A DNA stretch of 64,000 nucleotides. Source: an uncultured Candidatus Saccharibacteria bacterium (GTDB taxonomy: Bacteria; Patescibacteriota; Doudnabacteria; UBA920; O2-02-FULL-48-8). Location: positions 262,771 to 326,770 of the forward strand of contig CAZSDS010000001.1 in NCBI GenBank assembly GCA_964605735.1. The letters run 5' to 3'. Under the pieces are notes generated by a model that worked only from the letters and a program-made list of their open reading frames with translations, ran no database searches and had not been told where the DNA came from. Positions 10,154-55,531 of the stretch are shown here, piece by piece. The number at the start of each line of letters is the position of its first letter. The stretch's first letter is position 1. Position numbers and translations under genes: made by a program.

Positions 10154-10162
10154 TATGAAACC

Positions 10163-11722: not shown

Positions 11723-11729
11723 TTTATTT

Positions 11730-12755: not shown

Positions 12756-12837
12756 TTTGTTTCAAAATAAGGACATATCCACAAGGGATTTGTCCTTAAA
12801 TTATACAATATTTGGCACTCGCAAAGCAAATTTGAAC

Positions 12838-14766: not shown

Positions 14767-15183
14767 TTAAGCCCGGAAATCAAAACTGTCGTCGAGCTTA
14801 GGTTCCGAGTCGCTCAAACTGCCCGTGCTGCCCGCACCTGTCGCAATGTTTGAGCTTGGCGGATCTTTCCACCGGTCTTTTATTCTTGCCCAGTGAAATT
14901 TTAAATCACTGACCATATCCTGAAGTTCGTTTTGGCTGATGCCTTTGGCTTTGCCGTACGCACTGCTGACCTCGTCAACAATTTGGTTATATCTCGTTTG
15001 TGTCATGTCTCTGAACGCATTCGTTCGGTCAAGCACCTGTGACTTCATCTCCTGATAAGCCTTGCTTTCGTTAACTTTTTTCTTTATCTTTTCGCCGAAT
15101 AGCGCCCAGACCACCATACCGCCGACAAACCCTAATACCGCACCGCCCCAACCCATCCCCCTGCCCGCTGAATACGCACTCAT
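14767..15183 (-). CDS. YtxH-like general stress membrane protein
   Basis: N-terminal Gly-rich TM helix then a long amphipathic helix. Confidence 0.4.
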   Translation of the reverse strand: MSAYSAGRGMGWGGAVLGFVGGMVVWALFGEKIKKKVNESKAYQEMKSQVLDRTNAFRDMTQTRYNQIVDEVSSAYGKAKGISQNELQDMVSDLKFHWARIKDRWKDPPSSNIATGAGSTGSLSDSEPKLDDSFDFRA

Positions 15184-15189
15184 AGAAAT

Positions 15190-15435
15190 TTATCTCCTGA
15201 AAATAAATGTTCTTAATATCCTAAAGATTACCCCGACCAAAGTAACCTTTCCCCAACTCTTTGCCATGGTTCCCAGAGAATTCTGGATATCCCTCGCGGC
15301 AAGGTTCAGCGTACGAAACCCAGTTTTCGCCAAACGACTTATCTGATAGATCACGTAAAAAAAGAAGACAATAAAAATGCTGACTAATATCAGAGCAACG
15401 CTTGCAACCCCATAAAAAAATTCTTGTGCTTCCAT
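15190..15435 (-). CDS. Small membrane protein (short version of ORF 15190..15585)
   Basis: Starts at the internal ATG (MEAQEFFYGVASVALILVSIF...). The longer TTG-initiated version would contain a hairpin plus T-run terminator. Confidence 0.35.
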   Translation of the reverse strand: MEAQEFFYGVASVALILVSIFIVFFFYVIYQISRLAKTGFRTLNLAARDIQNSLGTMAKSWGKVTLVGVIFRILRTFIFRR

Positions 15436-15544
15436 ACTCGTAATCTTAGTGTAATAATTCACAATCTCAAGTGTCTTATTGCACCAACTTAATTCAACCA
15501 AGCAATACAAAAGATTGACGATAATACCCAAAGTTGTGGACAAT

Positions 15545-15570
15545 AAAAAACGGCCTTTTCTGGCCGTTTT
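15545..15570. terminator. Intrinsic terminator (ACGGCC-loop-GGCCGT flanked by A6/T run)
   Basis: Reads aaaaaaCGGCCttttctGGCCGtttt, directly downstream of the 15612..16100 gene on the minus strand. Confidence 0.6.
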
Positions 15571-15611
15571 GCCTAGTATTTCCAAATCCGCGCCGACTTT
15601 GATTATTGTGA

Positions 15612-16100
15612 TTATGTATGACGATCCGCTACGGATGAAGCCCCGTAAGAATCCGGTTTGGTTTTAACCGTGAACCCGTTCCCTTTAATCATACCTACGA
15701 TTTCATTTACCATTTTTTTAGTCTCGCCGTTTGGTCCAACATCAACGTGAATGGACAAATTAAAATCTTCAACCTTCATCCGCTTAAGTTTCTCAATCAA
15801 CTGCTCTGCAAGGTGCAGTGAAAACAAGGCTTCCTGAAAAATTCTTTGCCTTAAGCTATACATGTGGGCCTCATGTTTTTTGGCCCAGAAATATATTCCG
15901 CCGCTTCTCTTCCTGTGCACGATTATGGCCGAAACAAACTCAGCCGTATGGTTGCCATACAGCAATGAATCAGTCCCGATTATCAGTTCGTATTGCATGC
16001 CCGGGGCAATAGCTATGTAATCCAGTAATTTTTGCACAGCACCGTCAAAATCGAGCTGGCCATAAGTTTGGCTATTGAATTGGTTAAATTCGTAAGTCAT
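15612..16100 (-). CDS. YkuK/DUF458-like RNase H-fold protein
   Basis: A 162-aa protein with an IIGTDS core and overall pattern recalled as DUF458. This family assignment comes from memory. Confidence 0.4.
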   Translation of the reverse strand: MTYEFNQFNSQTYGQLDFDGAVQKLLDYIAIAPGMQYELIIGTDSLLYGNHTAEFVSAIIVHRKRSGGIYFWAKKHEAHMYSLRQRIFQEALFSLHLAEQLIEKLKRMKVEDFNLSIHVDVGPNGETKKMVNEIVGMIKGNGFTVKTKPDSYGASSVADRHT

Positions 16101-26263: not shown

Positions 26264-26662
26264 TTAGTTAAAGTCTGGATATTTGCCGCGGAGGGAATCC
26301 AGGGTCGCCTGGTCTGAGGCGGCATCCTCCAAAATGGCAAAGGCCTGTTGAGGGTCGGAAGACAGGATGGTTGTGGCGTACTCGGTAACTTTCAGCTCCA
26401 ATTCCCGGCGCTTTGACAAGGCTTGCTGTTTAAGGAGTTTCCCTTCCAGTGTTTCCAATTCTTCAAAGTCATGGGCCAATTCGCGTATAAGCGCCAGAAA
26501 ATCGGACTCAGCGTCAAGTAGGTTTATGTGAACCAGGACTTTTTCTGCAATCTCATGCGCTCGCTTAATGGCGATTCTTCTGGTGCGCAAACCTTCAGCC
26601 AGAAAAAGGCAAACCATTTTTGCATATTGCTCTTTTGGGGCAAGGTTTTTGTTTTCCGGCAT
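26264..26662 (-). CDS. Hypothetical alpha-helical protein (last gene of the 26264-32997 operon)
   Basis: A 132-aa ORF whose start overlaps the ATPase stop by 1 nt. Confidence 0.5.
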   Translation of the reverse strand: MPENKNLAPKEQYAKMVCLFLAEGLRTRRIAIKRAHEIAEKVLVHINLLDAESDFLALIRELAHDFEELETLEGKLLKQQALSKRRELELKVTEYATTILSSDPQQAFAILEDAASDQATLDSLRGKYPDFN

Positions 26663-29614: not shown

Positions 29615-29911
29615 TTAAAGTTCCTGATTGATTAATGAACTTAACTCTTGTTTCAAAGACAAAATTTCTTCATCTACCCATTTCATGTAATCAGGCGCTT
29701 TTTCTGAAATAAATTCGCCGATTTCCACCTCATCCCCTTTTTCCAAAATTTGGTTCAACTTTTCCTGGTCTGCATCTGGCAATGATTTCATAAGCCTGAG
29801 GAACAGGCGATCCTCTATAAGCCTTGCAGACTGATCCACAATTCTAATTTTTTGTTCTGCCGGCAAATCCTGGATGCCCAACAACGAAATTAAATCCTTA
29901 TCCTCGATCAT
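29615..29911 (-). CDS. Hypothetical small acidic protein
   Basis: A 98-aa ORF overlapping the upstream giant gene by 4 nt. Confidence 0.5.
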   Translation of the reverse strand: MIEDKDLISLLGIQDLPAEQKIRIVDQSARLIEDRLFLRLMKSLPDADQEKLNQILEKGDEVEIGEFISEKAPDYMKWVDEEILSLKQELSSLINQEL

Positions 29912-32900
29912 TGCTTCATCCTTTCTGCGGCCAGCCGCACCATAAATTTTTTAACTGTTTCTTGTTTCATTGTTGAACCCAGTTCATTTGATGACCGGTA
30001 AAACAAATCGTTCATGCGGTCGGCGAAGCCTTTGTATTTGGAGATCTGCCGGTCAGAAATCTGATCGCTGGTGAAAAAGGTCATAAAGTCAGACATCTTC
30101 TGATCCTGGATTTTATTCAAATCCTTTCCATCCAGGTTCATCTCCTTCATGAAGTCTTTGTATTTCGTTCCGCCCATCAGGTCTTTAATGGCGTCTGTGG
30201 TTTTTTTCTGGCTTTCGATTTGACTGTAAAGTTTGTTAACCTCTTCCTCAGAAACCAAGGCTCCATGTTCCGCTGTTTTCCCCGCGGCTGACTCAACCGT
30301 CTGGGTGACTTCGAAATCACCTGATTCTTTTATGCGATCAAAGTCCAGCTTTTCAACCTCGACATTTTCAGGCCCGATTCTTCCGGCCACCCGCTGATCA
30401 ACGTTTCCAACTTCATTGCGCACGCTTTCCAAAACTTCTGATTTGGTTGGAATGTTTTCGGCAAAATCCAGACTGCCTTTATCCAGGTTAAAACTCCCGT
30501 CAGCTGAGATGTCAATTTTTGCCCCGACTATGTCGCTGAGGTCTTTGCCCGTGCCATCCACGCTGTAACCGTTTTCCTTGGCAATCTCTAGAATGCGTTT
30601 ATGAATCGCTGTTTTGTAATCCGTGCCAGGGTACTTTTCTGTCAGCCACTTGGCAGTCGGACTGTCGGGATTATTTTTTACATGGTCGATCATCACGCTT
30701 TCAATGCTCTTGCCCGAACCCTCAGGCACTTCAAGGCTGTTTGTGAATTGGGTTGTTGATCTTTCAGCTTCAGTGAGTATGCGCGCCGGCTCAGCACCTG
30801 AAACTTTTGCGCCAGCCGTAGTTTCTGGCTTCGTATCTGGAATTTCAGAGTTTGAGTCAGGTGTTGTTTGCCCAACAACCTGCCCATCTCCAGCTTCAAC
30901 CGGTTCAGGCGAACCTGGAGAAGTCATTTCAGTTTCAAGATTTTGATCAGTCCAACCCAACTTGTATTTCTTGTCCACGTACTCAAGCATGGAGTGGAAA
31001 AGCCCGGCTGTGGCCACACCCACGAGCACTGATCCCGCCGTAGTGACCCTTCTAATGTTCTTTTCTTTGGTAATAGCCAAGTCAGTTTTATTTTCAGCAG
31101 AAATGGCTTGCAGTCTCAAGAATTCCAAATCATCGGGCTTAAATCCTTCCTGTTCAAGCAACTTCCTTTCATGTGCTAATAATTTTTGGAATTGTTCGCT
31201 GTTAACAATTTCGTCATGTGATTTTTTGTCAAAATACGCGCTGGCAAGCATCTGCCCTTGTTTTTCCTGAACCCCTTCCAAATTCAATTCTGCAATCTTG
31301 TCATCTGTTAATTCTTCCTTAAATTTATTCCTGGTCCAATCAATAATTCTGCGGGTTCTGAATGCAGCGTCAACACCTGACACAGCTGCAGCAGCCGCCC
31401 CCAAACTCATAAACGTTAAACCGGAGTACACTACGGTTCTAACGCTGAAAGGAACCGAAGCCACTTTCCCAAGCAAATTCAGTTCTTTTCCTGTACGTTT
31501 GGTGTAGGCATGACCCAGGTTTAGTCCCATATATTTATCCCATTTTCCCTGGACTGCCTTCCACCAACCAGCTTCCATTTGTCCAAACACTTCCTTGTGG
31601 GAAGCGGCCATGGCGAGCTTTTCCGTCAGATGTTTCTCGATATTTGCTCCGACATACTCCTGGCGAGCGTGCTCATATTCAAGTTTGAGGGTCTCTGTTT
31701 CATTAAAGACCTCTTCTTTTTTTGGCGCAAAACCTGCCTTGCTCTTTAATTTCTGGACTGCGCCATATTCGTCATATTTACGCTTAGCAGCAACATATTT
31801 AAGCCGGGCATTCGAAAGTTTCTCTTCCAGTGCGCGCTCTGCGGCAATATCTGATTCTGACCTGAATTCTTTCAGGCTTTCATTATTTTCATTCAAATCT
31901 GGCTCAGGTTCGTTTTTGACTATCTCAGCAGTGAGTTCAGGTTCAGGCTTGTCTAATTTCTCTGGTGCTTTCACCTGGAGTTCCTTAGCCATAAATTGCC
32001 CCATTTCCTCTGTTGACGCACCAGGAACAAAAACAAACTTCCTTACATCTGGACGGAATGCATTCTTTTCAACCTGATCCACCTTAATCTCAAGCCCTTC
32101 CAATGCCTTGGGGTTCGTTTTTTGTAAATTTTCCAGCACTGGCTCCAATTTTTCAAATGCCGCAACATGCTCTTCCGGGGAAATAAAACCTCGGATAACC
32201 TTAACCCCAAATTTTTTCCCAAGCTCATACTGCATATTGTCGACCTTCTCCCAACCAGGCGTTTCCACCGCAGCAATTTCGAGCATTTTTTCCCGCAACT
32301 CTTCAGGGCCTGGAGGGACCTCCTTTTTTGGAGAGTTCTCAGGTTGTGATTGAACTTCCTGATCCTCAGCATTCATCTTACCCTTGGCAATCTGTTCAAG
32401 ATCCGAAAGCAGGAGTTTTTCCTTCTCCCCCATGCGGCTGAGCTTGCTTTCTTCAGCCTTCTTTTTTTTCTTTATTTCAGCAGGCCTAAAAATTGTTTCA
32501 GGAGAGTCAGCATTGCTTTCTGAGGATAATTTAGAACCATGAGATTCTTCAGGATCCACTTTGGTTATTGTATTTTCAGTTTCAGGCGCAAGAGACTGCT
32601 CAGCGCTTATTTGCGAAGAATTTGGTTGAGCAGGCACCTCCTGACCACCCCCAGACTCTAAATTCGCCGACTTTTCTGAATCATTTGAACCGTTGGTTGA
32701 TTTTTCTAAACCACCGGTTAATTCACCAGCAAAACCCCTGGCTTTTTGAAATTCGTCATCCAATGACGCGTCATCCAGACCCTTTAATCTTTCTTCTTCG
32801 GACAGATCAGAAATAAAACCAGCATCCAAAATTGCCTGGATTTTATCCTCTCTGGTCAATTCTTTTTCAGAATCAGACTTTGAGTTTTCCTGTTCTTTCT

Positions 32901-32997
32901 CGTCCTCTGGAATTTTTGCCTGAATCTCGTGATAGCCATTCTTCATGAGAGCGGTCCTGAGATCATCCCCGGCCATTGATTCCATATTACTCGCCAT
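29908..32997 (-). CDS. Giant (1029 aa) acidic low-complexity protein with two central TM helices
   Basis: The N-terminal ~430 aa are Glu/Lys/Ser-rich. Two hydrophobic helices (VPFSVRTVVYSGLTFMSLGAAAAAVSGV and VTTAGSVLVGVATAGLF) flank a ~110-aa loop, followed by a ~330-aa C-terminal domain. Confidence 0.65.
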   Translation of the reverse strand: MASNMESMAGDDLRTALMKNGYHEIQAKIPEDEKEQENSKSDSEKELTREDKIQAILDAGFISDLSEEERLKGLDDASLDDEFQKARGFAGELTGGLEKSTNGSNDSEKSANLESGGGQEVPAQPNSSQISAEQSLAPETENTITKVDPEESHGSKLSSESNADSPETIFRPAEIKKKKKAEESKLSRMGEKEKLLLSDLEQIAKGKMNAEDQEVQSQPENSPKKEVPPGPEELREKMLEIAAVETPGWEKVDNMQYELGKKFGVKVIRGFISPEEHVAAFEKLEPVLENLQKTNPKALEGLEIKVDQVEKNAFRPDVRKFVFVPGASTEEMGQFMAKELQVKAPEKLDKPEPELTAEIVKNEPEPDLNENNESLKEFRSESDIAAERALEEKLSNARLKYVAAKRKYDEYGAVQKLKSKAGFAPKKEEVFNETETLKLEYEHARQEYVGANIEKHLTEKLAMAASHKEVFGQMEAGWWKAVQGKWDKYMGLNLGHAYTKRTGKELNLLGKVASVPFSVRTVVYSGLTFMSLGAAAAAVSGVDAAFRTRRIIDWTRNKFKEELTDDKIAELNLEGVQEKQGQMLASAYFDKKSHDEIVNSEQFQKLLAHERKLLEQEGFKPDDLEFLRLQAISAENKTDLAITKEKNIRRVTTAGSVLVGVATAGLFHSMLEYVDKKYKLGWTDQNLETEMTSPGSPEPVEAGDGQVVGQTTPDSNSEIPDTKPETTAGAKVSGAEPARILTEAERSTTQFTNSLEVPEGSGKSIESVMIDHVKNNPDSPTAKWLTEKYPGTDYKTAIHKRILEIAKENGYSVDGTGKDLSDIVGAKIDISADGSFNLDKGSLDFAENIPTKSEVLESVRNEVGNVDQRVAGRIGPENVEVEKLDFDRIKESGDFEVTQTVESAAGKTAEHGALVSEEEVNKLYSQIESQKKTTDAIKDLMGGTKYKDFMKEMNLDGKDLNKIQDQKMSDFMTFFTSDQISDRQISKYKGFADRMNDLFYRSSNELGSTMKQETVKKFMVRLAAERMKQ

Positions 32998-46406: not shown

Positions 46407-47963
46407 TTATCTTCCAGAATCCATAACAGCGGGGGCTGCAGGCTCTGTGACACCGCTGCTTCCAGCCGGCATGATTCGCACATTACCATTTTCATTGTCC
46501 AGGATTTCCTTTACCAGCGGAATGACAACGTTCTTGCGGTACCAATAATAGGCCGGAACATTTTCAGGTTCTTTGGTAACCGGGAAAATCAAAGCAGGGA
46601 CCAGGAGTTCTTCGTTGGTGCCGTCGCGGTAGTTCCAAAGCTTAACCATGGAAACCTGCGGCGTTCCCAGCTCAACGTCAACGGTTCGGCCATTTGGGTC
46701 ATTGTAATAATAGTTGCGAAAACCTCCTTGCGTGACCAGTTTCATTATGCGCTCCACGTCAGTCTCCGCGGCGTAGGAGGAGCTTTCGTAATTTTGGGTG
46801 TTCAAATCCCAAACCCCGCTTACACGAACCTCAGGTGCAATTCTGACGTTTACATTCAAGCCGTTTGGGTTACCTGATTCGTCAAACACTGGCTGGCCTT
46901 CAATAACAAGAGGATAAACCACACTCATGGAATCAGGAATCCAGAAACTTGCTTTCTCTGCAGCAGACATTCGTTCATACTGGCTGCGCCATTCCTTGTT
47001 TACAAACGGCTCACCATAAACGTCCCTGGGGATTCCATGTTGGTCCAGGAAGGAGTTAGCCGCGCTGATCAAAACTTCGTCAGAAGGAACTTGTGAAATT
47101 TCTATCCTTCTTGGCTCGCAAGGCATGCTTGTCCCACGATCAACTGACAACGAAAGCGGACACACAGCCTGATAAGTCTGCCACTTTGCCCAATTTTCGC
47201 TGATGCTGATATTGCCTTCACTCAAGCTGACATTGACCATGTAGCCCAATTCCTTGTTTTCAGCAAAGGTAAAATTCTGAAGCTGGGCACTGCCAAAGCT
47301 GTTCAAGTTCACCAGTCCAAAACTAATTCGGTTGATGAAATCAGACAAAGCGCTGTTGCTTTCGCCCTTGATACGCTTCAACACGTCAACTTTTTCCTGG
47401 GTCAAAGCCAGTTCATCGCCTGTATAAATGTATCTGAAATTAATTGCCTGTTCAGGAGCAATCACTCTTGCGTCAGGAGTTGCATAAGTGCCGTTGTCTG
47501 GCGCCGGAGCCGCGTTAGGAGCGACAGAAAGAGTTTCTGAGTTGCCATTGCCCCCACCCATTCCGCCGGCCTGTTGGAGATTGTTTAATGAACCAAAAGC
47601 GTTATCACGAGCTTTGGTGATCTTGGGACCTGACAACATTGTGGTCAGGTTGGAGTGGGAAGAATCATTGATGCCGTACAAGTACCAAACGCTAACTGCA
47701 AGCAGGGCAATGAAAGCCACTCCTGCCCCAGCAAGCTGGAATTTTTTCATAAAATTTGAAATTAATGATGTTTTGTGTTCTTGGGTTTCAGCCAGACTCA
47801 TCAGCTTTCGCCTCAAGTCCTGTCTAAATTGTTCGTCGAACTGAGTATCCGGACGTAATTCCATCAACTCAGTCACGAGCTTGCGTAAAACAGGTTCGTG
47901 CTGTTTCATGGACGGATCGCTCAGGTAGAGTTCCGCAAGGATTTGTTCAATTTTGTTCTGCAT
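46407..47963 (-). CDS. Anti-sigma factor with single TM helix and large (~400 aa) extracytoplasmic domain
   Basis: It lies immediately downstream of the ECF sigma gene. The N-terminal cytoplasmic helix region is followed by a TM helix (AGAGVAFIALLAVSVWYLY). ATG 47963 is preferred over the TTG at 47990. Confidence 0.6.
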   Translation of the reverse strand: MQNKIEQILAELYLSDPSMKQHEPVLRKLVTELMELRPDTQFDEQFRQDLRRKLMSLAETQEHKTSLISNFMKKFQLAGAGVAFIALLAVSVWYLYGINDSSHSNLTTMLSGPKITKARDNAFGSLNNLQQAGGMGGGNGNSETLSVAPNAAPAPDNGTYATPDARVIAPEQAINFRYIYTGDELALTQEKVDVLKRIKGESNSALSDFINRISFGLVNLNSFGSAQLQNFTFAENKELGYMVNVSLSEGNISISENWAKWQTYQAVCPLSLSVDRGTSMPCEPRRIEISQVPSDEVLISAANSFLDQHGIPRDVYGEPFVNKEWRSQYERMSAAEKASFWIPDSMSVVYPLVIEGQPVFDESGNPNGLNVNVRIAPEVRVSGVWDLNTQNYESSSYAAETDVERIMKLVTQGGFRNYYYNDPNGRTVDVELGTPQVSMVKLWNYRDGTNEELLVPALIFPVTKEPENVPAYYWYRKNVVIPLVKEILDNENGNVRIMPAGSSGVTEPAAPAVMDSGR

Positions 47964-47967
47964 AGAT

Positions 47968-48537
47968 TTAAATGTATGGGTTAAGGACAAAAATGACGTA
48001 CAACAGAATCGGCAACAATTCTTTTTGCATTTTTTGCATGATTCTGCTGAATATGACTTTGCAGTTCCCTTCCGTCTTGCCGGTCAGGGCAGAAATTTCA
48101 GCATAACTCAGCCCATCCCACAGGCGCATAATTACGATATCCCGCTGTTCCTCACTTAATTGATTCAAGTAAGTTTTGACCTGGTCCAGCCTGTCCCTGA
48201 TTTCCGCCTCTCCCGCTACGTTATCCCGGGAAGGGGCATTGGCAGCTGCCTCAAGGTCAACAGTGGATTTGGAGGTGCGCATGTGGTCAATGACCGTATT
48301 TCGGGCAATTCGATACAGCCAGCTGCTGAACACGCCGCTGGAGCCTTTGAATGAATTTATATTTTGAAAGGCTTTTGTAAACGTGACGCTGGTCAAGTCT
48401 TCCGCAGTCTGCTTGTGACTCGTGCGATAGTAGATGAAGTCGTAAATCTTTTTGACGTAAATGTCATACAGATCAGCGAATGCATCCATGTCGCCTTTTT
48501 GGCATCGTTCGATTGCAGCCAGTTCTCGATTGTCCAT
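47968..48537 (-). CDS. ECF-family RNA polymerase sigma factor (sigma-70 region 2 plus region 4)
   Basis: Region 2 FADLYDIYVKKIYDFIYYRT...SWLYRIARNTVIDHMR, and region 4 YAEISALTGKTEGNCKVIFSRIMQKM. Confidence 0.88.
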   Translation of the reverse strand: MDNRELAAIERCQKGDMDAFADLYDIYVKKIYDFIYYRTSHKQTAEDLTSVTFTKAFQNINSFKGSSGVFSSWLYRIARNTVIDHMRTSKSTVDLEAAANAPSRDNVAGEAEIRDRLDQVKTYLNQLSEEQRDIVIMRLWDGLSYAEISALTGKTEGNCKVIFSRIMQKMQKELLPILLYVIFVLNPYI

Positions 48538-48699: not shown

Positions 48700-50328
48700 C
48701 TATTTTGCCTGCGCGAAATCAAAAGTTTCAGCCTTCAAATCAGTTTTAATCGGCAGAGTCACAACAAATGTAGTGCCTTTGTTCAAACCCTTGCTTTCCG
48801 CCCATATTTTGCCCTTGTGGTACTCGACAACAACTTTGGCCACGTAAAGGCCAAGTCCGAGACCATCCGAATCTTTTTTGGACTGGCGTCCGCGGCCATA
48901 TTTTTCAAAAATTGCCTTAAGCTCTTCCCGCGCAATACCTTTGCCGCGATCCTTTATCTTGATAATAAAATCTGTGGTGTTTTTTGTCAGCTCAATGTTA
49001 ATCTTGCCGGCTTTGGAGTATTTGATGGCGTTGTCTATGAGGTTATTGATGACTTGAGCAAGTTTCTCCTTGTCTGCCAGAAAGTGAGGAAAAGTTTGCT
49101 TTGGTTTGCGCCAGACAAGTTCAATATTTTTGAGACTTGCTTGCGGAACCAGCTGCATGACCACGTTATCCACCAACTTAATCAGGTCTGACTCTTCAAA
49201 AATAAATTCCATCTTGCCTCGTTCAATGCGTGAAGCGTTCAGCATGTCATCTATCAGTCCTATTAAGTTGTTGTTTGTAACCTGGGCTTTGGTTAACGCG
49301 TCCTTGATCTTTGGCGTTACCTTTCCATAATCACCGGAAAGTACAGCGGCCAGATACCACTTGATTGTTGCCGGCGGGGTTCGCAACTGGTGTGATGCGA
49401 CTGAAATAAATTCCGCGCGTGCTTTGTCCAGAGCCTGAAGCCTCTCATTAGCGTAAGCTAATTCATCAGAAAGGATTTGGAGTTGTTCTCTTTGTTTAAC
49501 TTCTCTCAAAACACTTCTAATTAAAAATACGGAAAATGCCGCAATGAGAACTGCTAAAAACGTCTGAACTATTTGTTCTTGTAGATTTCTGGCCAACAAA
49601 ATTTGCCAAATACTCGCCACTATAAGCACAAAAGACAGCAACTCAGTAGAAATCACTTTTACATTTAAGAACTGATACCTAAGAATCGCAAATGCCGCTC
49701 CAAAAAACAAAGGTAAAATAAAAAGCGATGAATAATTAACAAAAGTAGTGTCATTAAGAAACACTACACTGATAAAAACTAACCCAAAAATGAGAATATA
49801 GGTAGTTGTTAACCCAAAAGATATGGAAAGCCACTGTTTCCTTTCCAAACCCTTGGCTTTTAGGTACTTCCTAACTATCAAATAGAAAGTGTATATCGAA
49901 AGTCCTATCAGCATTGCCGCAAAAAATCCGATCATTGCTCCTGGGACTGGTTCGGCTTGGCCGTTGGCTATCTCGACAGTCTTGAATACATATGGAGTCA
50001 TAGCTAAAAGCATAAGCATATACATGACTGCCATATGAAAGTTTAGTACTTTATTTGGGATAGCCAATTCTTTATTCGGGAAATTAGCAACAAATAAATA
50101 GAACAAAAAGACATGTGGTACAGCAAAAAATATGACAGCGCGAATCCAGAATAAGGCGCTTTCTGCCGGGACGGTAACTGAAACATAGTTAACCATTGAC
50201 CACGCAGCAATCACCAACGAATAAAGGAAGAAAATTCGATTGGTTACGTTCTTTTTATTATGGAAATACACCAGGAACCCAAGGAAAAGGAGTATTTCAG
50301 TTGTCAGTAAACTAAGGAATAAGATCAT
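48700..50328 (-). CDS. Sensor histidine kinase with 6-7 N-terminal TM helices
   Basis: H-box ISVASHQLRTP, N-box NLIDNAIKYS, and G-boxes DRGKGI and GLGLGLYVAK. Confidence 0.9.
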   Translation of the reverse strand: MILFLSLLTTEILLFLGFLVYFHNKKNVTNRIFFLYSLVIAAWSMVNYVSVTVPAESALFWIRAVIFFAVPHVFLFYLFVANFPNKELAIPNKVLNFHMAVMYMLMLLAMTPYVFKTVEIANGQAEPVPGAMIGFFAAMLIGLSIYTFYLIVRKYLKAKGLERKQWLSISFGLTTTYILIFGLVFISVVFLNDTTFVNYSSLFILPLFFGAAFAILRYQFLNVKVISTELLSFVLIVASIWQILLARNLQEQIVQTFLAVLIAAFSVFLIRSVLREVKQREQLQILSDELAYANERLQALDKARAEFISVASHQLRTPPATIKWYLAAVLSGDYGKVTPKIKDALTKAQVTNNNLIGLIDDMLNASRIERGKMEFIFEESDLIKLVDNVVMQLVPQASLKNIELVWRKPKQTFPHFLADKEKLAQVINNLIDNAIKYSKAGKINIELTKNTTDFIIKIKDRGKGIAREELKAIFEKYGRGRQSKKDSDGLGLGLYVAKVVVEYHKGKIWAESKGLNKGTTFVVTLPIKTDLKAETFDFAQAK

Positions 50329-50356
50329 CTTTTATTTTTCTTTTTTTTAGTTCGGA

Positions 50357-51844
50357 TTATTTCTTAAGCCACTGTTGTTTTACCCCTGGCTTGAAATACA
50401 TTTCATCGTTATACGGCCAAAAGAATATTCGCGGCCTTGTTCGCTTTTCTTCAAGCAGGCTTGCTAATTCCCTATACTCAGAATTTTCTTTCAGTAACCT
50501 TTTGACTACAGCATGGAGGATTACATCGCTAAGTTTTTTGCTGCTTTTTCCTTTAGGCTTAAGCTCAATGTTAAGCTTGAGAAATTGGTTGTTTTTTTCA
50601 TCGTAGGCGGTTTCCATACTGAATTTCCCTGTCACGTGTTTCAAAATGTGGGCGTCTTCAATAGCTCGTTTAATACTTTGAGGATAAATTTGAAGGCCAT
50701 ACAAAGTAACGGAAAAATCAGACCTCTCAAAAACATAGACGAAAGGCAACGGTGACAATTTAATACCTAATTTTTTAGCTTCCTTGTTCAGATCAATTCC
50801 ATGATTCTTAAACATTGCAGCAATCTCAGTAAGGGTATAAGTTCCACCGTTATCACCTATTTGGTATCTGCAAATTGGCATAGCGCTATCTGCGGTGATC
50901 AGCAGTCCACCCTCTTGTTCCTCAAAAGCAATAAACTCTGGATTATATTGGGCAAGAGTTGGCAATTTCGTCTTTGAGAACATCTGATCAAGAATATGCG
51001 GATGCTGCACGGCCAATTTTCTTATGAGGATGCTGGTCGGCGTTTCAAAAGCCATTGCTCCTAATTCAGCAGAACCATAAATATTTAAGGTATCCGAATA
51101 GATATTCCTGACATGAGCCGCCTTAGCAATATGCTCTCTAAACCCTTCAGTGAATGATTCTGCCGCAAACACAAATCTGCAATTCCAAGATTTCAGATCC
51201 ACTCCTTCAATTTCTGCCTCATCAACAATGTCCTTAAGAAATGGGGGGTAACCTGTAAAAATTAGATTCTTGTAAGAGGGCGCCATCTCTCTTAGGCAAT
51301 TAAATATTTCCTTTTTATTTATCCCTGGAGTTACAATCGACAACTGCTGTCCACGGTTTGCGGCCTCATAAAATGCTTGATAGGTTATCATCCCGCCTAT
51401 CCAAATTCCCATACCAAAGCAGTTTATCAGTAGCGTTGGACCAGGATAGCCATTTTGCAAAAAATACTCCGCTAAAATTGAATACTGCCAATCAAGAGTT
51501 TTACTCCTCAAAAAATAGGTAGGTTTGCCTGTTGAGCCTGAAGTTGAAGTGCCAACCAATGCTCCCGATTCATGCAGAGTTGGCCAGAGTTTGTCAGGCA
51601 AGGGATATTGCCTGAAATAATTTGATTTTGTTACACTGGGGAGGTTCTCAAAATCTTCGTATTTATTTATTTTTTCAGGATTTACCTTGTTTGTTTTAAG
51701 AAACTTTTTATAGGCTGGCACCGCCTTAGCCATCTTCTGGAAAAGTCCCAAACTCCTTTTTTGTTGCCATTTCAACAAAACAGAATCAAGAGTCTGGTCA
51801 GAAAGTTTTAAGGCATTTTTATGATTAATTTTCTTTTTAGGCAT
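50357..51844 (-). CDS. PaaK-like adenylate-forming enzyme (phenylacetate-CoA ligase / F390-synthetase / CapK-LuxE family)
   Basis: AMP-binding P-loop TSTSGSTGKPTY and the N-terminal PaaK-type domain arrangement. Confidence 0.75.
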   Translation of the reverse strand: MPKKKINHKNALKLSDQTLDSVLLKWQQKRSLGLFQKMAKAVPAYKKFLKTNKVNPEKINKYEDFENLPSVTKSNYFRQYPLPDKLWPTLHESGALVGTSTSGSTGKPTYFLRSKTLDWQYSILAEYFLQNGYPGPTLLINCFGMGIWIGGMITYQAFYEAANRGQQLSIVTPGINKKEIFNCLREMAPSYKNLIFTGYPPFLKDIVDEAEIEGVDLKSWNCRFVFAAESFTEGFREHIAKAAHVRNIYSDTLNIYGSAELGAMAFETPTSILIRKLAVQHPHILDQMFSKTKLPTLAQYNPEFIAFEEQEGGLLITADSAMPICRYQIGDNGGTYTLTEIAAMFKNHGIDLNKEAKKLGIKLSPLPFVYVFERSDFSVTLYGLQIYPQSIKRAIEDAHILKHVTGKFSMETAYDEKNNQFLKLNIELKPKGKSSKKLSDVILHAVVKRLLKENSEYRELASLLEEKRTRPRIFFWPYNDEMYFKPGVKQQWLKK

Positions 51845-52871
51845 TGTTGTAAATTCTTTCTGCCATTTCTATGGCAATTGTGTTAGGGTTTTTTTTCTTT
51901 TTTTTGGAAAAGATTAGTATTCGTTTTAATACCTTATCAATATCAGTAATATGTTTGAGAACTCTCCCAGGGTTGTACCCTCCCGGCAATAATTCATCAG
52001 CGACATTCATTAGTCCGCCGGCGTTCGCCACAAAATCAGGAATATACAAAATTTTCCGTTTCACCAATTTTTCCCCTATGCCAGGATTTGCGAGCTGATT
52101 ATTAGCCGTGCCACAAATCATTTTTGCATTAATTTCCGATATATTTTTCTCGGTCACCTCATTTCCAAGCGCACACGGGCTATACACGGTCACAGGGAGT
52201 TTATGCACTGAACGGAACGACACGATATTAATAAAGGGATATTTTTTCTTAATGTATTTTAATCGGTGATGATCCTTGTCCGCAACAGCAATATTCTTAG
52301 TATGTTGAGATAATAAATGTAGTAAATGAGAACCAGTTTTCCCTACGCCTTTTATTGCTACTGAAACATTCTTTATAGGCTTGTTTAAATGTTTAAGTCC
52401 GGTTTTTAAACAAATATAGCAACTTTCCGCGGCATAGACTGATGGATCTCCAGCTTTGCCTGTCTTGCCTATGAAGAACGGAGACACAGTTAGCATATAT
52501 TGCACATCTGACTCCGCCAACCCAACATCTTCTCCGGTATAAAATTTGCCATTCAAGTGTTTTATTACAAGCGCGTACTCATACAAAATCTCTTTGAAAT
52601 TCTTATCATACGGGTCCGCCATTATCACACCCTTGCCGCCACCAAAAGGTAAGCCTGAAACGGCACACTTATAAGTCATGGCGTGTGATAACCGTAGCAC
52701 ATCTTTAAGAGCTTCCTTTTTGCTTTTATAAGGGAAGATGCGGGTTCCTCCAACAGCAGGACCTAAATTAGTGTTGTGTATCGCAATATACCCTTTTAAT
52801 TTCTTGCTGTGTACGGATAAATCAAGAATTATCTCATGGTGGTCGTACTCAGGCAATGACTCATATTTCAT
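51837..52871 (-). CDS. Glu/Leu/Phe/Val-family amino-acid dehydrogenase (leucine/phenylalanine dehydrogenase-like)
   Basis: Catalytic Lys region GGGKGVI and the Rossmann motif IKGVGKTGSHL. Confidence 0.78.
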   Translation of the reverse strand: MKYESLPEYDHHEIILDLSVHSKKLKGYIAIHNTNLGPAVGGTRIFPYKSKKEALKDVLRLSHAMTYKCAVSGLPFGGGKGVIMADPYDKNFKEILYEYALVIKHLNGKFYTGEDVGLAESDVQYMLTVSPFFIGKTGKAGDPSVYAAESCYICLKTGLKHLNKPIKNVSVAIKGVGKTGSHLLHLLSQHTKNIAVADKDHHRLKYIKKKYPFINIVSFRSVHKLPVTVYSPCALGNEVTEKNISEINAKMICGTANNQLANPGIGEKLVKRKILYIPDFVANAGGLMNVADELLPGGYNPGRVLKHITDIDKVLKRILIFSKKKKKNPNTIAIEMAERIYNNA

Positions 52872-53926
52872 ACTAACTCTTCAAATCTGATCAATTTTCT
52901 ACCACTATCCAGTTTCTGATCCAAGCAAATCTTGCGAGCGAGGTAGGCCGCTACACCCCCACCTACAGTCACGGTGCTCATTACCTGAGGCCTGCCTACA
53001 AGGGTCTTATTTATTTCACCAATGGTTTCTATGACTCTGGTGGGGACATTTTCCCTGCCCACGATTGCCAAAGCAAATTTTTGCCTATCGTTTTCAGAAA
53101 TAGGTTTGGATAATACTTCTTCTGCAGTAGCACCGGTTAAGCCATTAAAAATTTCCGTGTTGGGGTCCTTATCATACCTTTCTACATCAATCAAAAGCCT
53201 ATCACCTAAATTTGTTAACATTATTACCGGAACTCCATATTTTCTAGCAACCATCCTGATCTTTATTTTTTGTTCAAAATCATCTATTGCCTCAAAAATC
53301 AGATTTAATTTTTTTGAACCTGCAACAAATTCTTCAATATTTTCGTCATTCAAACCCTTTCCAAATAATTCCAACTCCGCATATGGGTTGACTTCGTAAA
53401 TCTGTTCAGCAGTTATTTTACTCTTTTCCTTTCCTAGCTCATGCACACCTGAACGAACCCTGTTCAAATTGCTCAAAGATAGGGTATCAAAATCTGCTAA
53501 TTTCATATGGTTGGAAATTCCTGAGTAAGCCAAATTTAACGCCATCCCGTTTCCAATTGACAGCCCAAGCACTCCAACATTGAAGTCTTTAAGTTTTTTT
53601 TGTTCTTCAGAATTAATAATATTTTGATTTCTATTCGTCCTCACTTTTTCGTATTCTTTTTGATTCAAAATGTGTACGAGATAACCGTTCCATGGATAAT
53701 AAACCCATGTCCCATTTAGACGCCCTGGGCGGTTTTTTTCTTCAAGATATTTTGCCAACAAATCCTGATAACCAGGGTCAAATTTAAGTTGGGGGTTTTC
53801 AATATTAAAAAGCTCCTCCAACTGATTTGGGTAAGTGTCGATTTTCCTCCACACGTTATTTTCCTGCTCAACTTTTTCTAAATCATCCAAAGTATGCTCT
53901 GTTTCAGTTATTAAAATTGGCTTCAT
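52868..53926 (-). CDS. E1-like ThiF/MoeB-family adenylyltransferase with ~110-aa N-terminal extension and atypical Gly loop
   Basis: VGVLGLSIGNGMALNLAYSGI...LADFDTLSLSNLNRV matches the ThiF nucleotide-binding core, but the loop reads GxSxGxG rather than GxGxxG. Confidence 0.75.
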   Translation of the reverse strand: MKPILITETEHTLDDLEKVEQENNVWRKIDTYPNQLEELFNIENPQLKFDPGYQDLLAKYLEEKNRPGRLNGTWVYYPWNGYLVHILNQKEYEKVRTNRNQNIINSEEQKKLKDFNVGVLGLSIGNGMALNLAYSGISNHMKLADFDTLSLSNLNRVRSGVHELGKEKSKITAEQIYEVNPYAELELFGKGLNDENIEEFVAGSKKLNLIFEAIDDFEQKIKIRMVARKYGVPVIMLTNLGDRLLIDVERYDKDPNTEIFNGLTGATAEEVLSKPISENDRQKFALAIVGRENVPTRVIETIGEINKTLVGRPQVMSTVTVGGGVAAYLARKICLDQKLDSGRKLIRFEELV

Positions 53927-53930
53927 TTTT

Positions 53931-54938
53931 CTATTCGATTATTATTTTTTTAATTGGTCTCCTGGGGCTATGGAAATGCACTTTATTACAAAAACCTAAT
54001 CTGAAAAACATTTGAAGCTTTTTCTCAGTGGCCATTATTTGCTGTAAAGCTTTTCTGTGTCTGGGGCTTTCTATCCCGCCTTGCATTACCCCAATGCTTA
54101 TATTATTCTTTTCAGCTTCAACTGCAATTTTTTGGAAAGACATACCTACTTTTAACCAATCGCTTTCGGTGTCATAATCTGTCATCAATAATGCAAAGGT
54201 GGGCACATTATTTAGCATCCTTCGGTGTATCTTTACTTGGAGATTGCTGATATCGAAAAATCTCGTAAGAGATGGAAAAATCAAAGATACAAGAAAAGGC
54301 ATACCAAGGTTTTTGCCGACCAAACCTTCTTCATGCCTTCCAATTGATGGTTTTAGCCAAGGGTATAATTCCTTCCGGAAATTTTTATCCTGAAAAGCCT
54401 CTTTAATGGATTCCAAAACCACGGGCTTAATTTGTTCTTTCTGCGACCTATCAGACACAAGGTGAATACTCACCCCATGCTCGACCATATTTTTTAGCTT
54501 TAGCAAAAAGCTATCAGGTAGTGCTGTTTCCTCAAACGGAAGTCGGCTGTTATGCCTATTAATGACCGCGTTCAAGGTAACCTCATCTATATTTTTAGCC
54601 TCTAGAGAACCGTATTCAAATTTCGCTATCACGTCATGAACCTTGCTCGCCACACTAGTTTGATAAGACAATCCCAGACAGTCGGAAACCATTTTGAGAG
54701 TACCAACAACGGTACCTAGGGTTATTGCAAATTCACGGCCTTCGGTGTCGGCTACGGTCAATTTACGAGACCTGTCGGGCAATATTTCAATGGTCTTTTC
54801 TTTACAACGAAATTGCCAAGGTTGCATGTTGTGACTTGAAGGAGCTAATGACGCAAGCTGCACAAGAAAAAACAACCTATCCTGATCATTATTTAGGTTC
54901 ATGTACTCTCGTGGGCTGATCTCGCGTTTAGTTTTCAT
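53931..54938 (-). CDS. Tandem nitroreductase-fold FMN-binding protein (Acg-family / SagB-like)
   Basis: LAPSSHNMQPWQF is the nitroreductase/Acg N-terminal signature. The 335-aa length is compatible with two half-domains. Confidence 0.7.
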   Translation of the reverse strand: MKTKREISPREYMNLNNDQDRLFFLVQLASLAPSSHNMQPWQFRCKEKTIEILPDRSRKLTVADTEGREFAITLGTVVGTLKMVSDCLGLSYQTSVASKVHDVIAKFEYGSLEAKNIDEVTLNAVINRHNSRLPFEETALPDSFLLKLKNMVEHGVSIHLVSDRSQKEQIKPVVLESIKEAFQDKNFRKELYPWLKPSIGRHEEGLVGKNLGMPFLVSLIFPSLTRFFDISNLQVKIHRRMLNNVPTFALLMTDYDTESDWLKVGMSFQKIAVEAEKNNISIGVMQGGIESPRHRKALQQIMATEKKLQMFFRLGFCNKVHFHSPRRPIKKIIIE

Positions 54939-54941
54939 TGT

Positions 54942-55020
54942 ATTTCACAAAGAGAGAATGTACCTTCATTATACGTATTTTTGCACAAAAAAGCAATTAG
55001 TTTTTGGATTTTTGTGAAAT
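54942..55020. repeat. Perfect 10-bp inverted repeat ATTTCACAAA ... TTTGTGAAAT bracketing the divergent promoter region
   Basis: Left arm at 54942-54951 and right arm at 55011-55020 with 59-bp spacing. Additional TTGCACAAAAAAGCAA dyad between them. Confidence 0.55.
54968..54996 (-). promoter_or_regulatory. Near-consensus sigma70 promoter (TTGCTT-17-TATAAT) for the 54938-48700 operon
   Basis: The minus strand reads TTGCTTttttgtgcaaaaatacgTATAAT. The TSS lies ~23 nt before ATG 54938. Confidence 0.55.
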
Positions 55021-55054
55021 TTTAATAATATTGTGCTAATATTAGTTTAACGCT

Positions 55055-55468
55055 ATGGCAAACAACAAGAAACAAAAGAAAATTTTAGTGGCTGAAGATG
55101 AACTCGCAATGCGGGAAATTGTAGTGGAAAAACTGCAATCCGGCGGTTTTAACGTTAGCCAAGCAGAAAACGGGGCCATTGCAATAAAAATGGTGGAAAA
55201 GGAAAAACCAGACCTGATTTTGCTAGATCTAATGATGCCCGAAGTCGACGGCTTCGGCGTGCTGGAAAAAGTAAGAAAAAACCCAAACGCAAAAATTGCA
55301 CAAACCCCGATAATAATTTTGACCAACCTTTGGAGCAAGGAAGAGATAATCAAAACAAAAAACCTTGGAGTCCAGGCTTACATCATAAAAGCATATATGA
55401 CCACGGAAGAAATTTTGGACAAAGTCATCGAAGTCCTAAATGTCCATGTCACAGAAAAGTCAAAATAG
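55055..55468 (+). CDS. Single-domain response regulator (CheY-like receiver only)
   Basis: A 137-aa protein with acidic pocket VAEDE, phospho-acceptor LILLDLMMP, and T/K motifs (IILTN, KAY). Confidence 0.9.
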   Translation: MANNKKQKKILVAEDELAMREIVVEKLQSGGFNVSQAENGAIAIKMVEKEKPDLILLDLMMPEVDGFGVLEKVRKNPNAKIAQTPIIILTNLWSKEEIIKTKNLGVQAYIIKAYMTTEEILDKVIEVLNVHVTEKSK

Positions 55469-55500
55469 AACCCCGCACATAAACAAATTTAAATAACTAA

Positions 55501-55531
55501 AAAACGGCAACTGGTTTGCCGTTTTTTTATT
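55501..55531. terminator. Bidirectional intrinsic terminator
   Basis: AAAAAACGGCAActggtTTGCCGTTTTTTTAT between convergent RR and ftsQ-like genes. Confidence 0.8.

Follow-up and report, generated by a model that had tools for sequence, protein, structure and literature searches.

A low-GC gene island of a Patescibacteria genome pairs relatives of oxazolone-making enzymes with a membrane sensor kinase and may produce a small molecule that it also senses

The window analysed here is a 64,000-nt stretch of contig CAZSDS010000001.1 from an uncultured Candidatus Saccharibacteria bacterium, assigned to the Doudnabacteria in GTDB. A stand-alone response-regulator receiver of 137 aa is encoded on its plus strand (55055..55468; Pfam Response_reg, E 6.8e-23), and divergently from it, on the minus strand, lie four enzyme genes and a sensor gene. 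The enzymes are an FDO/Acg-like nitroreductase of 335 aa (FDO, 54938..53931), a ThiF/E1-like ATP-dependent enzyme of 352 aa (53926..52868), an amino-acid dehydrogenase of the Glu/Leu/Phe/Val (ELFV) type of 344 aa (AADH, 52871..51837; Pfam ELFV_dehydrog_N and ELFV_dehydrog) and a PaaK-fold adenylate-forming ligase of 495 aa (PaaKL, 51844..50357). They are followed by a sensor histidine kinase of 542 aa with an N-terminal 7TM domain (50328..48700; Pfam HisKA_7TM at residues 7-223, HisKA and HATPase_c). The FDO and ThiF-like genes are separated by 4 nt (TAG-AAAA-ATG), the ThiF-like and AADH genes overlap by 4 nt (ATGA), the AADH and PaaKL genes overlap by 8 nt (ATGCCTAA), and the kinase gene begins after a 28-nt gap. 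All of these junctions had been listed in a preliminary description of this DNA and were confirmed, as was its account of four coupled genes leading into a histidine kinase, with all five ORFs on the minus strand.

A candidate sigma-70-type promoter read from the sequence (54968..54996, minus strand) lies in the 116 nt that separate the divergently transcribed receiver and FDO genes; in it, TTGCTT (54996-54991) and TATAAT (54973-54968) flank a 17-nt spacer. Both hexamers and the spacer had been recognised previously, with a distance to the FDO start codon of 23 nt; measured from the -10 hexamer to the ATG, the distance is 29 nt. The -10 hexamer is perfect, and the site was omitted by a consensus scan because its -35 hexamer matches TTGACA at 3/6 positions only. 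In that scan, promoter-like sites in the region did not exceed chance (13 found against 19.8 expected), and the site upstream of FDO is a plausible promoter without statistical support. A GC content of 37.5-40.3% covers exactly the block from the receiver (39.9%) to the kinase (40.3%), with the other 30 ORFs of the window averaging 46.8% (SD 2.7, minimum 41.0). On the receiver side the island boundary is marked by a hairpin terminator detected in a terminator scan (55499..55527, minus strand; 12-bp stem followed by a T run), which ends the upstream FtsQ-like gene. Genes for an ECF sigma factor and a putative anti-sigma factor (48537..46407) lie 3' of the kinase on the same strand and had been counted as neighbours of the system, but they have a GC content of 46-47%, are not conserved beside the module in relatives and are not part of the unit.

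Hundreds of ultra-small bacteria of the candidate phyla radiation share the island, and relatives of PaaKL are encoded in at least 584 species genomes of Patescibacteria. Among the complete loci, defined as those with at least 6 kb on either side of the ligase gene (n=46), a ThiF-like gene is present in 45/46, FDO in 43/46 plus one fusion, and a 7TM kinase adjacent to the enzyme genes in 43/46; ligase, ThiF, FDO and 7TM kinase occur together in 42 of the 46, in approximately 20 gene orders. Since this co-occurrence is near-universal, the scattering of the genes among relatives that had been set as the refutation of a single functional unit was decisively not found, and the proposal of such a unit is borne out. 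The AADH is an accessory member, found in 24/46 complete loci, and in at least nine loci without AADH the gene immediately upstream of the ligase encodes a class I/II aminotransferase. Either of the two is present in only 31/46 complete loci, which indicates that they are not essential to the chemistry. At least one receiver is encoded less than 9 kb away in 15/46 complete loci, and a divergent receiver is found at the corresponding place in the close relatives L004, L005, L032, L066 and L075, as well as on the P0006 contig. In some Patescibacteria modules an extra protein of approximately 310 aa has been detected, with only faint similarity to methyltransferases (E 0.16-0.25).

With its N-terminal extension included, the ThiF-like protein scores 302.7 bits against the NCBIfam model for the Rv1355c (TrzS) family, in the N-terminal half of that model, and the next best ThiF-type model reaches 70.9 bits. 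A module from Magasanikbacteria (L052) encodes a 738-aa ThiF-FDO fusion that spans positions 27-712 of the 722 of the Rv1355c model with 442.7 bits; both scores lie below its curated cut-off of 476 bits. The Pfam ThiF match begins at residue 99 and is preceded by a folded domain of approximately 96 aa, so that the extension described previously, then given as approximately 110 aa, is present. The atypical GxSxGxG loop is likewise real and reads GLSIGNG, with G121, S123 and G125 invariant in 28 homologues; the adenylation motifs are also invariant in homologues, among which no invariant Cys was found. FDO scores 193.6 bits against the NCBIfam Acg family (cut-off 199) and 60.8 bits, below the Acg-family score, against the C-terminal half of the Rv1355c model, and Acg (2ymv) is its nearest solved structure by sequence. 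An earlier suggested resemblance to SagB was not supported, with the Acg/FDO family matched and no SagB-type model at E <= 0.01. Module FDOs are very divergent (median pairwise identity 23%); among 71 of them, conservation is at least 90% at residues A32, P33, S34, N37, Q39, P40, W41, R128 and R132. On this homology, the ThiF-like enzyme and FDO are identified as a two-protein form of the oxazolone synthetases of ThiF-FDO type (OxzB, TyzB/TyzC and TrzS = Rv1355c). The preliminary statement that the genes match no nameable pathway is consequently out of date, this enzyme pair having been described between 2020 and 2025 (bioRxiv 10.1101/2020.06.11.147165; PMC10404671; PMC12856293).

PaaKL carries a complete set of adenylation motifs, and the earlier picture of two adenylating enzymes combined with a redox enzyme is supported. 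In the cluster it occupies the place of the GNAT-like N-acyl-amino-acid synthase (OxzA/TyzA) which draws the acyl group of known oxazolone systems from acyl-CoA or acyl-ACP (PMC10404671; bioRxiv 10.1101/2020.06.11.147165). No acyltransferase recurs in or beside the module in 80 related loci, and no description of a PaaK-ligase variant was found in the literature searched. The structural neighbours of PaaKL include ClxA (PDB 9s3l), which has the PaaK fold and is described as the amide ligase in closoxazole biosynthesis (PMC12519233, PMC9400959). The two share only 19% identity over aligned residues, and ClxA joins aminohydroxybenzoates. PaaKL may be CoA-dependent and could instead be a conventional CoA ligase that supplies acyl-CoA to an acyltransferase from outside the module. 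The best PDB match of the AADH is tryptophan dehydrogenase (TrpDH) 5b37, with 215 bits. Its Gly113 and Leu287 are the TrpDH residues, Ala and Val being found at these positions in four leucine dehydrogenase (LeuDH) structures aligned residue by residue, and among module AADHs the Gly is conserved in 37/37 and the Leu in 35/37. By this alignment the predicted substrate pocket is TrpDH-like and not LeuDH-like, in keeping with the aromatic amino acids found in every natural oxazolone known.

A pathway can be proposed from these assignments. PaaKL, as the predicted supplier of an N-acyl amino acid, would adenylate a carboxylic acid, probably an arylacetate or a 2-oxo acid, and couple it, directly or via CoA, to an aromatic amino acid, presumably replacing the GNAT-like synthase. 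The ThiF-like enzyme, a predicted oxazolone-forming N-acyl-amino-acid cyclase by homology to TrzS/TyzB, would then adenylate the amino-acid carboxylate and close the 5(4H)-oxazolone ring, after which FDO would desaturate the C-alpha/C-beta bond, as suggested by homology to TrzS/TyzC. Known FDO desaturases use O2 and many Patescibacteria are anaerobic, which counts against this scheme, as do the divergence of the module FDOs and the better score of FDO against the Acg family. The TrpDH-like AADH would interconvert aromatic amino acid and 2-oxo acid, feeding one of the two building blocks, a task that the class I/II aminotransferase would take over in other lineages. In the weakest step, the co-inherited 7TM kinase and receiver would couple the pathway to signalling, most simply by sensing its product in a quorum-sensing-like manner. 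Taken together, we hold with roughly even confidence that the receiver, FDO, ThiF-like enzyme, AADH, PaaKL and 7TM kinase constitute a mobile Patescibacteria module making a molecule of the oxazolone or N-acyl-dehydroamino-acid type through a variant of the OxzAB/TyzACB/TrzAS pathway. The earlier notion of a kinase-linked candidate system for a small molecule is supported, and as relatives of oxazolone-making enzymes are here paired with a membrane sensor kinase, the six-gene island may both make and sense its own small molecule.

Across 69 module kinases, conservation is at least 90% for the sensor residues T29, F33, W43, R63, P84, P112, F136 and G172 as well as for the phospho-acceptor H313. 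Synthase-receptor pairs, of which agr and com are examples, have the kinase in the same operon as the biosynthetic genes, with which it travels, and by analogy the module kinase may sense the pathway product. Its position beside the enzyme genes agrees equally well with control of the operon in response to an outside stimulus. In a less likely alternative, the chemistry would be the same but the kinase would not be the receptor of its product: the 7TM kinase and receiver would sense an external cue, for example an amino acid or aromatic acid from the host, or stress of the envelope or of a redox kind, and switch on a metabolite that serves as an antimicrobial, as part of the membrane or as protection against stress. 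A kinase and receiver beside a regulated operon are an ordinary two-component arrangement, and the receiver is divergent, as is often the case for regulators of neighbouring operons; in addition, the roles suggested for known oxazolones include stress-associated ones, and the related N-acyl tyrosines are antimicrobial (PMC12856293). However, Pfam detects neither an output nor a DNA-binding domain in the receiver, and a direct effect on transcription of the operon is therefore not apparent; moreover, the kinase lies inside the coupled operon, kept with the enzyme genes through the approximately 20 gene orders.

Catabolism or salvage of aromatic amino acids, in which AADH or aminotransferase would deliver an arylpyruvate, PaaKL would act on the arylacetate formed from it, as a CoA thioester, and an unrelated accessory step would fall to ThiF/FDO, would suit the TrpDH-like pocket, and phenylacetate-CoA ligases are both the nearest solved structures to PaaKL and the name given to its homologues by JGI. 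This explanation is nonetheless improbable, given that PaaKL scores 55.7 bits against the curated PaaK model (cut-off 646.3), that across 80 loci the module shows no further recurrent genes of the paa, IOR or beta-oxidation kind, and that ThiF and FDO (45/46 and 43/46), not AADH (24/46), are the constant partners of PaaKL. A housekeeping ThiF function (MoeB/ThiF sulfur-carrier activation, TcdA-type tRNA ct6A or ubiquitin-like conjugation) is disfavoured as very unlikely: although some homologues are annotated by JGI as tRNA threonylcarbamoyladenosine dehydratase or as molybdopterin/thiamine adenylyltransferase, and MoeB and TcdA are among the structural neighbours, these families score 37-71 bits against cut-offs of 152-376, far from the Rv1355c value, an invariant Cys is lacking, and no ThiS/MoaD-like, E2 or JAB genes recur in the 80 loci. 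The RiPP/TOMM analogy drawn previously, in which an RRE-like N-terminal domain of the E1-like protein recognises a leader and the FMN enzyme is an azoline dehydrogenase, is largely refuted and scarcely credible, with no PqqD/RRE Pfam match even at E <= 10 and the Rv1355c match surpassing every other ThiF-type model. A peptide substrate is not supported, neither a YcaO nor a precursor-like ORF recurring in 80 related loci.

The proposed oxazolone-type module resembles agrBDCA/comCDE-type circuits in that biosynthetic genes and a polytopic membrane histidine kinase share one co-inherited operon with an adjacent receiver. Those circuits use ribosomal peptide signals and DNA-binding response regulators, whereas the putative signal of the module would be a small acyl-amino-acid heterocycle and its receiver lacks an output domain. 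N-acyl dehydrotyrosine clusters (stieleriacines, thalassotalic acids, kyonggic acids) likewise have a ThiF-family gene next to a nitroreductase-family gene, joined by a short or overlapping junction, and some include a methyltransferase, which may be compared with the approximately 310-aa protein mentioned above; they differ in being built around NasY, an N-acyl-amino-acid synthase, and around long fatty acyl chains, with neither PaaK-fold ligase nor kinase (PMC12479983). By analogy, the end product of the module may be an open-chain dehydro acid rather than an oxazolone. The tyrazolone system TyzACB (Rv2336-2338c) has TyzB (ThiF) and TyzC (FDO) as separate adjacent genes, as in the window (PMC10404671). 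It shares with OxzAB of Pseudoalteromonas rubra the ATP-dependent cyclisation and flavin-dependent desaturation of an N-acyl aromatic amino acid predicted for the module; the GNAT-like synthase of both is absent from the module and the 80 related loci, and the sections of the accounts that were consulted note no co-encoded sensor kinase for either. The N-acyl tryptazolone pathway TrzAS (Rv1356c/Rv1355c) of Mycobacterium tuberculosis and relatives (PMC12856293) is matched by the ThiF-like protein together with its extension and, end to end, by the ThiF-FDO fusion of the Magasanikbacteria relative, and the predicted TrpDH-like pocket fits an aromatic amino-acid substrate. In contrast to TrzAS, the genes of the window are split and ordered FDO then ThiF, a PaaK-fold ATP-dependent ligase with or without AADH or aminotransferase stands in place of a TrzA-type acyltransferase, and a 7TM histidine kinase and a receiver are firmly tied to the module, whose hosts are Patescibacteria.

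The operon consists of five tandem minus-strand open reading frames, which encode in order a nitroreductase-superfamily flavin oxidase of the Acg-like type (FDO; 54938..53931, 335 aa), a ThiF-like enzyme (53926..52868, 352 aa), a Glu/Leu/Phe/Val-type amino-acid dehydrogenase (AADH; 52871..51837, 344 aa), a PaaK-like adenylating ligase (PaaKL; 51844..50357, 495 aa) and a histidine kinase (50328..48700, 542 aa). The successive junctions are TAG-AAAA-ATG, ATGA, ATGCCTAA and a 28-nt gap to the kinase, corresponding to spacings of 4, -4, -8 and 28 nt, and they read back identically to the 4-nt gap, ATGA overlap, 8-nt overlap and 28-nt kinase gap of the preliminary description. The TTGCTT-17-TATAAT promoter proposed there is likewise present (54996-54968), at 29 nt from the ATG instead of the 23 nt claimed. 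Its -35 element matches three of six consensus positions, and promoter-like sites across the region show no excess over shuffled sequence, leaving it a reasonable promoter candidate without statistical backing. No recognisable Shine-Dalgarno sequence occurs in the 25 nt upstream of any of the five operon genes (54939-54963 for the first), and the regions upstream of these gene starts are A-rich. A stand-alone receiver gene (55055..55468, plus strand) is divergent from the operon and separated from it by a 116-nt intergenic region, and a terminator scan detected a strong hairpin at 55527-55499 which ends the preceding FtsQ-like gene.

Base composition marks the unit at 48700-55468 independently of gene content, since GC lies between 37.5 and 40.3% in all six genes from receiver to kinase. 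The 30 other window ORFs of at least 200 aa average 46.8% (SD 2.7, minimum 41.0), so that each of the six is GC-poorer than every one of them. The receiver and the kinase are thus included, and the ECF pair which follows is left out. This suggests that the six-gene block is a horizontally acquired island within a housekeeping region of the 797-kb source contig, the surrounding genes comprising MurJ, FtsW, MurD, PBP, DnaB, DnaX, RecR and several tRNA synthetases. The ECF pair, a minus-strand sigma factor (189 aa) overlapping by 23 nt a gene for a 527-aa protein without Pfam match that may be its anti-sigma factor (46407-48537), begins 162 nt beyond the kinase, which shares its strand, and no terminator was found between the two. 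It was considered as part of the module and rejected, as its GC content is 46-47%, like that of the FtsQ-like gene on the other flank, the genes downstream of the kinase vary among relatives, and in these the pair does not accompany the module. Elsewhere in the window, a VirD4/TrwB-like type IV secretion coupling protein (26662-29187, minus strand, 841 aa) adjoins a 1029-aa ORF without Pfam match (29908-32997, minus strand).

Homologues of the ligase are numerous, with more than 2,000 at 48-74% identity; those with a name are nearly all from Patescibacteria, the closest being from Doudnabacteria, and when each GTDB species was represented by a single genome, a ligase relative was detected in at least 584 species genomes. 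The gene neighbourhoods of 80 fetched loci and three Kaiserbacteria contigs were annotated by iterated profile searches, and 46 of the loci were complete, the ligase gene being flanked on each side by 6 kb or more. Among these 46, ThiF is present in 45, FDO in 43 (a further locus, L052, carrying a fusion) and an adjacent 7TM kinase in 43, with all three found together in 42. AADH occurs in 24 and a class I/II aminotransferase in seven, one or the other being present in 31, and one or more receivers lie within 9 kb in 15. The gene set has been kept together through about 20 gene orders, which provides strong evidence that the module, kinase included, is one functional unit, as had been proposed for the four genes and the kinase. 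L020 and L057 share the window order (FDO, ThiF, AADH, PaaKL, kinase), the genes flanking the module vary by lineage, and FDO is its most divergent member, with a median pairwise identity of 23%. Among the matches listed, the module lineages include Saccharibacteria, Paceibacteria/Parcubacteria and Kaiser-, Magasanik-, Doudna-, Woese-, Yanofsky-, Lipton-, Adler- and Taylorbacteria, and Levy- and Woykebacteria occur among the ThiF homologues. Three of the 80 loci carry labels from outside Patescibacteria. Two of these (L050 and L060) contain the module and may derive from mis-binned genomes. The third (L070, a 760-kb contig of a Cellvibrionaceae MAG) has a ligase homologue of 42% identity at 9887-11395, without ThiF, FDO or 7TM kinase, located between genes for a 258-aa protein without Pfam match and a short-chain dehydrogenase, in an unrelated context of SDR and esterase genes. 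This indicates that the ligase family also exists outside Patescibacteria, in another setting.

Several variations on the module have been observed. One locus (L044) bears two ligase-ThiF pairs (4703-7428 and 9962-12262) 2.5 kb apart on one contig, their ligases being 33% and 42% identical to that of the window, an arrangement suggesting that the module has been duplicated in this genome and has since diverged. In nine loci (L007, at 14883-15818, L014, L028, L031, L032, L039, L040, L054 and L060) a gene for a protein of about 310 aa is inserted between FDO and the kinase; Pfam and PDB searches with this protein gave no significant match, showing only a faint methyltransferase similarity (E 0.16-0.25). 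Occasional extra genes inside the module were also detected in L010, L028, L038, L049 and L062; they encode a regulator of the TrmB family, a prolyl-oligopeptidase-like protein, recognised from its sequence alone, and a GTP cyclohydrolase II-like protein which could serve flavin supply for FDO. In the Saccharimonadales-type loci (L055, L059, L061, L064, L065 and L074) FDO lies on the strand opposite ThiF, and the kinase ORF extends to about 2.2 kb, compared with 1.6 kb elsewhere.

The identity of the ThiF-like enzyme and FDO is central to the interpretation of the module. Residues 7-351 of the ThiF-like protein match the N-terminal half (positions 18-338) of the Rv1355c family model NF005901 with an E-value of 5.2e-90 (302.7 bits), while FDO, which has a nitroreductase fold, matches the C-terminal half of the same family model (60.8 bits). 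FDO also reaches 193.6 bits against the Acg-family FMN oxidoreductase model (cut-off 199), its other NCBIfam matches being two hypothetical ThiF-FDO models, and Acg (2ymv) is its closest solved structure by sequence. The resemblance to Acg noted in the preliminary description is thereby upheld; that to SagB is not, as no SagB-type model was matched at E <= 0.01. The best structural and sequence match of the ThiF-like protein is AclA (PDB 9egb), for whose function no account was found in the literature searched, the ThiF review included. Four nucleotides separate the end of the FDO gene from the start of ThiF, and the two genes adjoin in 43 of the 46 complete loci. In L052, from Candidatus Magasanikbacteria, they are fused into a single 738-aa protein (11460-13673) with the architecture of Rv1355c, the enzyme also termed TrzS, and this fusion covers positions 27-712 of the 722 in the model at 442.7 bits. 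The curated cut-off of the family (476 bits) is reached by none of these proteins, the fusion falling narrowly under it; the separate ThiF and FDO can each cover only about half of the full-length model.

Residue conservation is in keeping with this relationship, which the fusion strengthens. The ThiF-like adenylation motifs (G121, S123, G125, D147, N153-R156, K168 and D215) do not vary among the 28 homologues compared, across which no Cys is invariant; this combination fits a predicted cyclase better than a thioester-forming E1. In FDO, residues A32, P33, S34, N37, Q39, P40, W41, R128 and R132 are conserved at 90% or more in 71 module FDOs. In TrzS the adenylation-site residue is Asp217, of which D215 is a candidate counterpart, and the reference residues for FDO are R540 and Q651; the window residues were compared among their module homologues. 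It has been shown experimentally that TrzS, a ThiF-FDO fusion, cyclises N-acyl tryptophan with ATP and desaturates it with O2 to yield N-acyl tryptazolones (PMC12856293). Judged by homology, the window pair is a split relative of such oxazolone synthetases.

The remaining two enzymes would act at the entry step. PaaKL has no Pfam match and only weak matches to PaaK/F390-synthetase models (55-65 bits against cut-offs above 450). The best NCBIfam model for AADH is the tryptophan dehydrogenase ScyB (NF035922), which it matches at 260.8 bits where the cut-off is 600, so that AADH is not a ScyB equivalog. By sequence it is closest to the tryptophan dehydrogenase 5b37 (215 bits), followed by leucine dehydrogenases. 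Residue-by-residue alignment places Gly113 and Leu287 in its pocket, as in 5b37, where four leucine dehydrogenase structures have Ala and Val; the Gly is found in 37 of 37 module dehydrogenases and the Leu in 35. Phenylalanine dehydrogenases also carry Gly and Leu at these positions (Gly124/Leu307, against Ala113/Val291 in leucine dehydrogenase). Such a pocket would fit an aromatic or bulky substrate, consistent with the fact that every natural N-acyl oxazolone described so far is derived from an aromatic amino acid (PMC12856293). In at least nine loci, all without AADH (L007, L010, L019, L021, L026, L030, L034, L045 and L051), a class I/II aminotransferase gene (PF00155, E 3.6e-40) lies directly upstream of the ligase gene, in the AADH position. 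The arrangement resembles a non-orthologous replacement that leaves the net chemistry, from amino acid to 2-oxo acid, unchanged. No acyltransferase of the GNAT-like N-acyl-amino-acid synthase type (OxzA, TyzA, TrzA or NasY) is present among the window module genes, and across the 80 loci no recurrent acyltransferase family was found either in the module or up to 1.5 kb away from it.

From these data a pathway can be proposed, in which PaaKL would supply an N-acyl amino acid by adenylating an acid and coupling it to an amine, whether directly, in a ClxA-like manner, or by way of CoA with the help of an acyltransferase encoded elsewhere. By homology, the ThiF-like enzyme would then carry out an ATP-dependent cyclisation of this compound and FDO its flavin-dependent C-alpha/C-beta desaturation. 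The dehydrogenase or aminotransferase would convert an aromatic amino acid to the corresponding 2-oxo acid or back, feeding one of the two building blocks. More speculatively, both halves would originate from aromatic amino acids, the acyl donor being an arylpyruvate or its decarboxylation product arylacetate, and an all-aromatic route of this kind would suit organisms without fatty-acid synthesis. The weakest step is the last, in which the 7TM kinase would sense the product and signal through output-less receivers. The kinase, composed of a HisKA_7TM sensor (residues 7-223), HisKA and HATPase_c, displays the co-inheritance of a signal-synthase/receptor-kinase circuit, given its adjacency in 43 of 46 loci through about 20 orders and the low GC of the island.

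Taken as a whole, it is possible, and in our estimate rather unlikely, that the module is a self-contained signalling system of Patescibacteria, in which an oxazolone or dehydro-acyl-amino-acid autoinducer is made by way of the ligase from aromatic amino acids, with no need for fatty-acid metabolism, and the 7TM kinase is its cognate receptor acting via stand-alone receivers. In the main rival, the chemistry is the same and the kinase responds to an external cue instead. Conservation is similar in the 7TM sensor region and in the kinase core (median pairwise identities of 33% and 34%, respectively), the sensor keeping T29, F33, W43, R63, P84, P112, F136 and G172 in at least 90% of 69 kinases, and a homologue search with the sensor domain alone retrieved six proteins only. 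A catabolic reading, in which PaaKL would be the phenylacetate-CoA ligase PaaK, is disfavoured; that assignment was rejected, the ligase lying below the curated equivalog cut-off and outside a paa catabolic gene context. Also disfavoured is a RiPP reading, which the preliminary description had weighed in comparing the ThiF-like and FMN enzymes to the C+B half of the TOMM (azoline/azole) machinery, a comparison now displaced by the match of the pair to the Rv1355c/TrzS-type synthetases. As that description had itself remarked, neither a YcaO cyclodehydratase nor a precursor peptide is encoded in the window operon, whose junction spacings leave no room for either gene, and neither is a recurrent neighbour in the 80 loci. 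The N-terminal 96 residues of the ThiF-like protein, preceding a PF00899 match that begins at residue 99, are predicted to form a beta-alpha-beta-alpha-alpha-alpha-beta-beta-alpha arrangement and gave no RRE or PqqD match even at E <= 10. Since the Rv1355c model spans this extension, it appears to be common to TrzS-family enzymes, whose substrates are small molecules. A housekeeping reading is disfavoured as well, the runner-up ThiF-type model for the ThiF-like protein scoring 70.9 bits and the best classical ThiF, MoeB and TcdA models 37-71 bits.

Patescibacteria constitute a large share of bacterial diversity and have tiny genomes, and to our knowledge almost no secondary metabolism or signalling chemistry has been recognised in them. 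That hundreds of species have retained the module even as their genomes shrank and its genes were repeatedly reshuffled indicates that it likely matters for their lifestyle. Were the proposed signalling system confirmed, the candidate phyla radiation would gain its first candidate for a cell-cell signal, whether between epibionts or between epibiont and host, and the oxazolones, as a class of natural products, a physiological role; what that role is has been described as a major unresolved question (PMC12856293). None of the publications retrieved on oxazolone synthetase, tyrazolone and OxzB deals with Patescibacteria, with an entry by way of a ligase or with a kinase linked to the enzymes; no publication listed combined oxazolone with Patescibacteria terms, and searches combining Patescibacteria and ThiF found nothing relevant. 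The similarity-network analysis of the TrzS study makes no mention of these phyla (PMC12856293), and the module genes are unmentioned in the Patescibacteria Tn-seq paper and the 2024 perspective.

Comparison with known systems places the module beside a small set of characterised pathways. Tyrazolones are produced in M. tuberculosis by TyzB (ThiF) and TyzC (FDO), which form a split pair (PMC10404671), and OxzB of Pseudoalteromonas rubra makes them likewise (PMC10404671; bioRxiv 10.1101/2020.06.11.147165). Pairs of ThiF and nitroreductase also mark N-acyl dehydrotyrosine clusters (PMC12479983). In all characterised systems the first enzyme is a GNAT-like N-acyl-amino-acid synthase (OxzA, TyzA, TrzA or NasY), whereas the window module is without that synthase and its ThiF-like enzyme and FDO are instead partnered by a PaaK-fold ligase and a dehydrogenase. 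The module would hence extend the ThiF-FDO oxazolone pathway by an ATP-dependent ligase route that dispenses with the acyl-CoA-using GNAT-type synthase, and would add to it a built-in candidate receptor. Its enzymatic core is understood from these relatives, and it is the entry step, the linkage to a receptor-like kinase and the phylogenetic home that are new.
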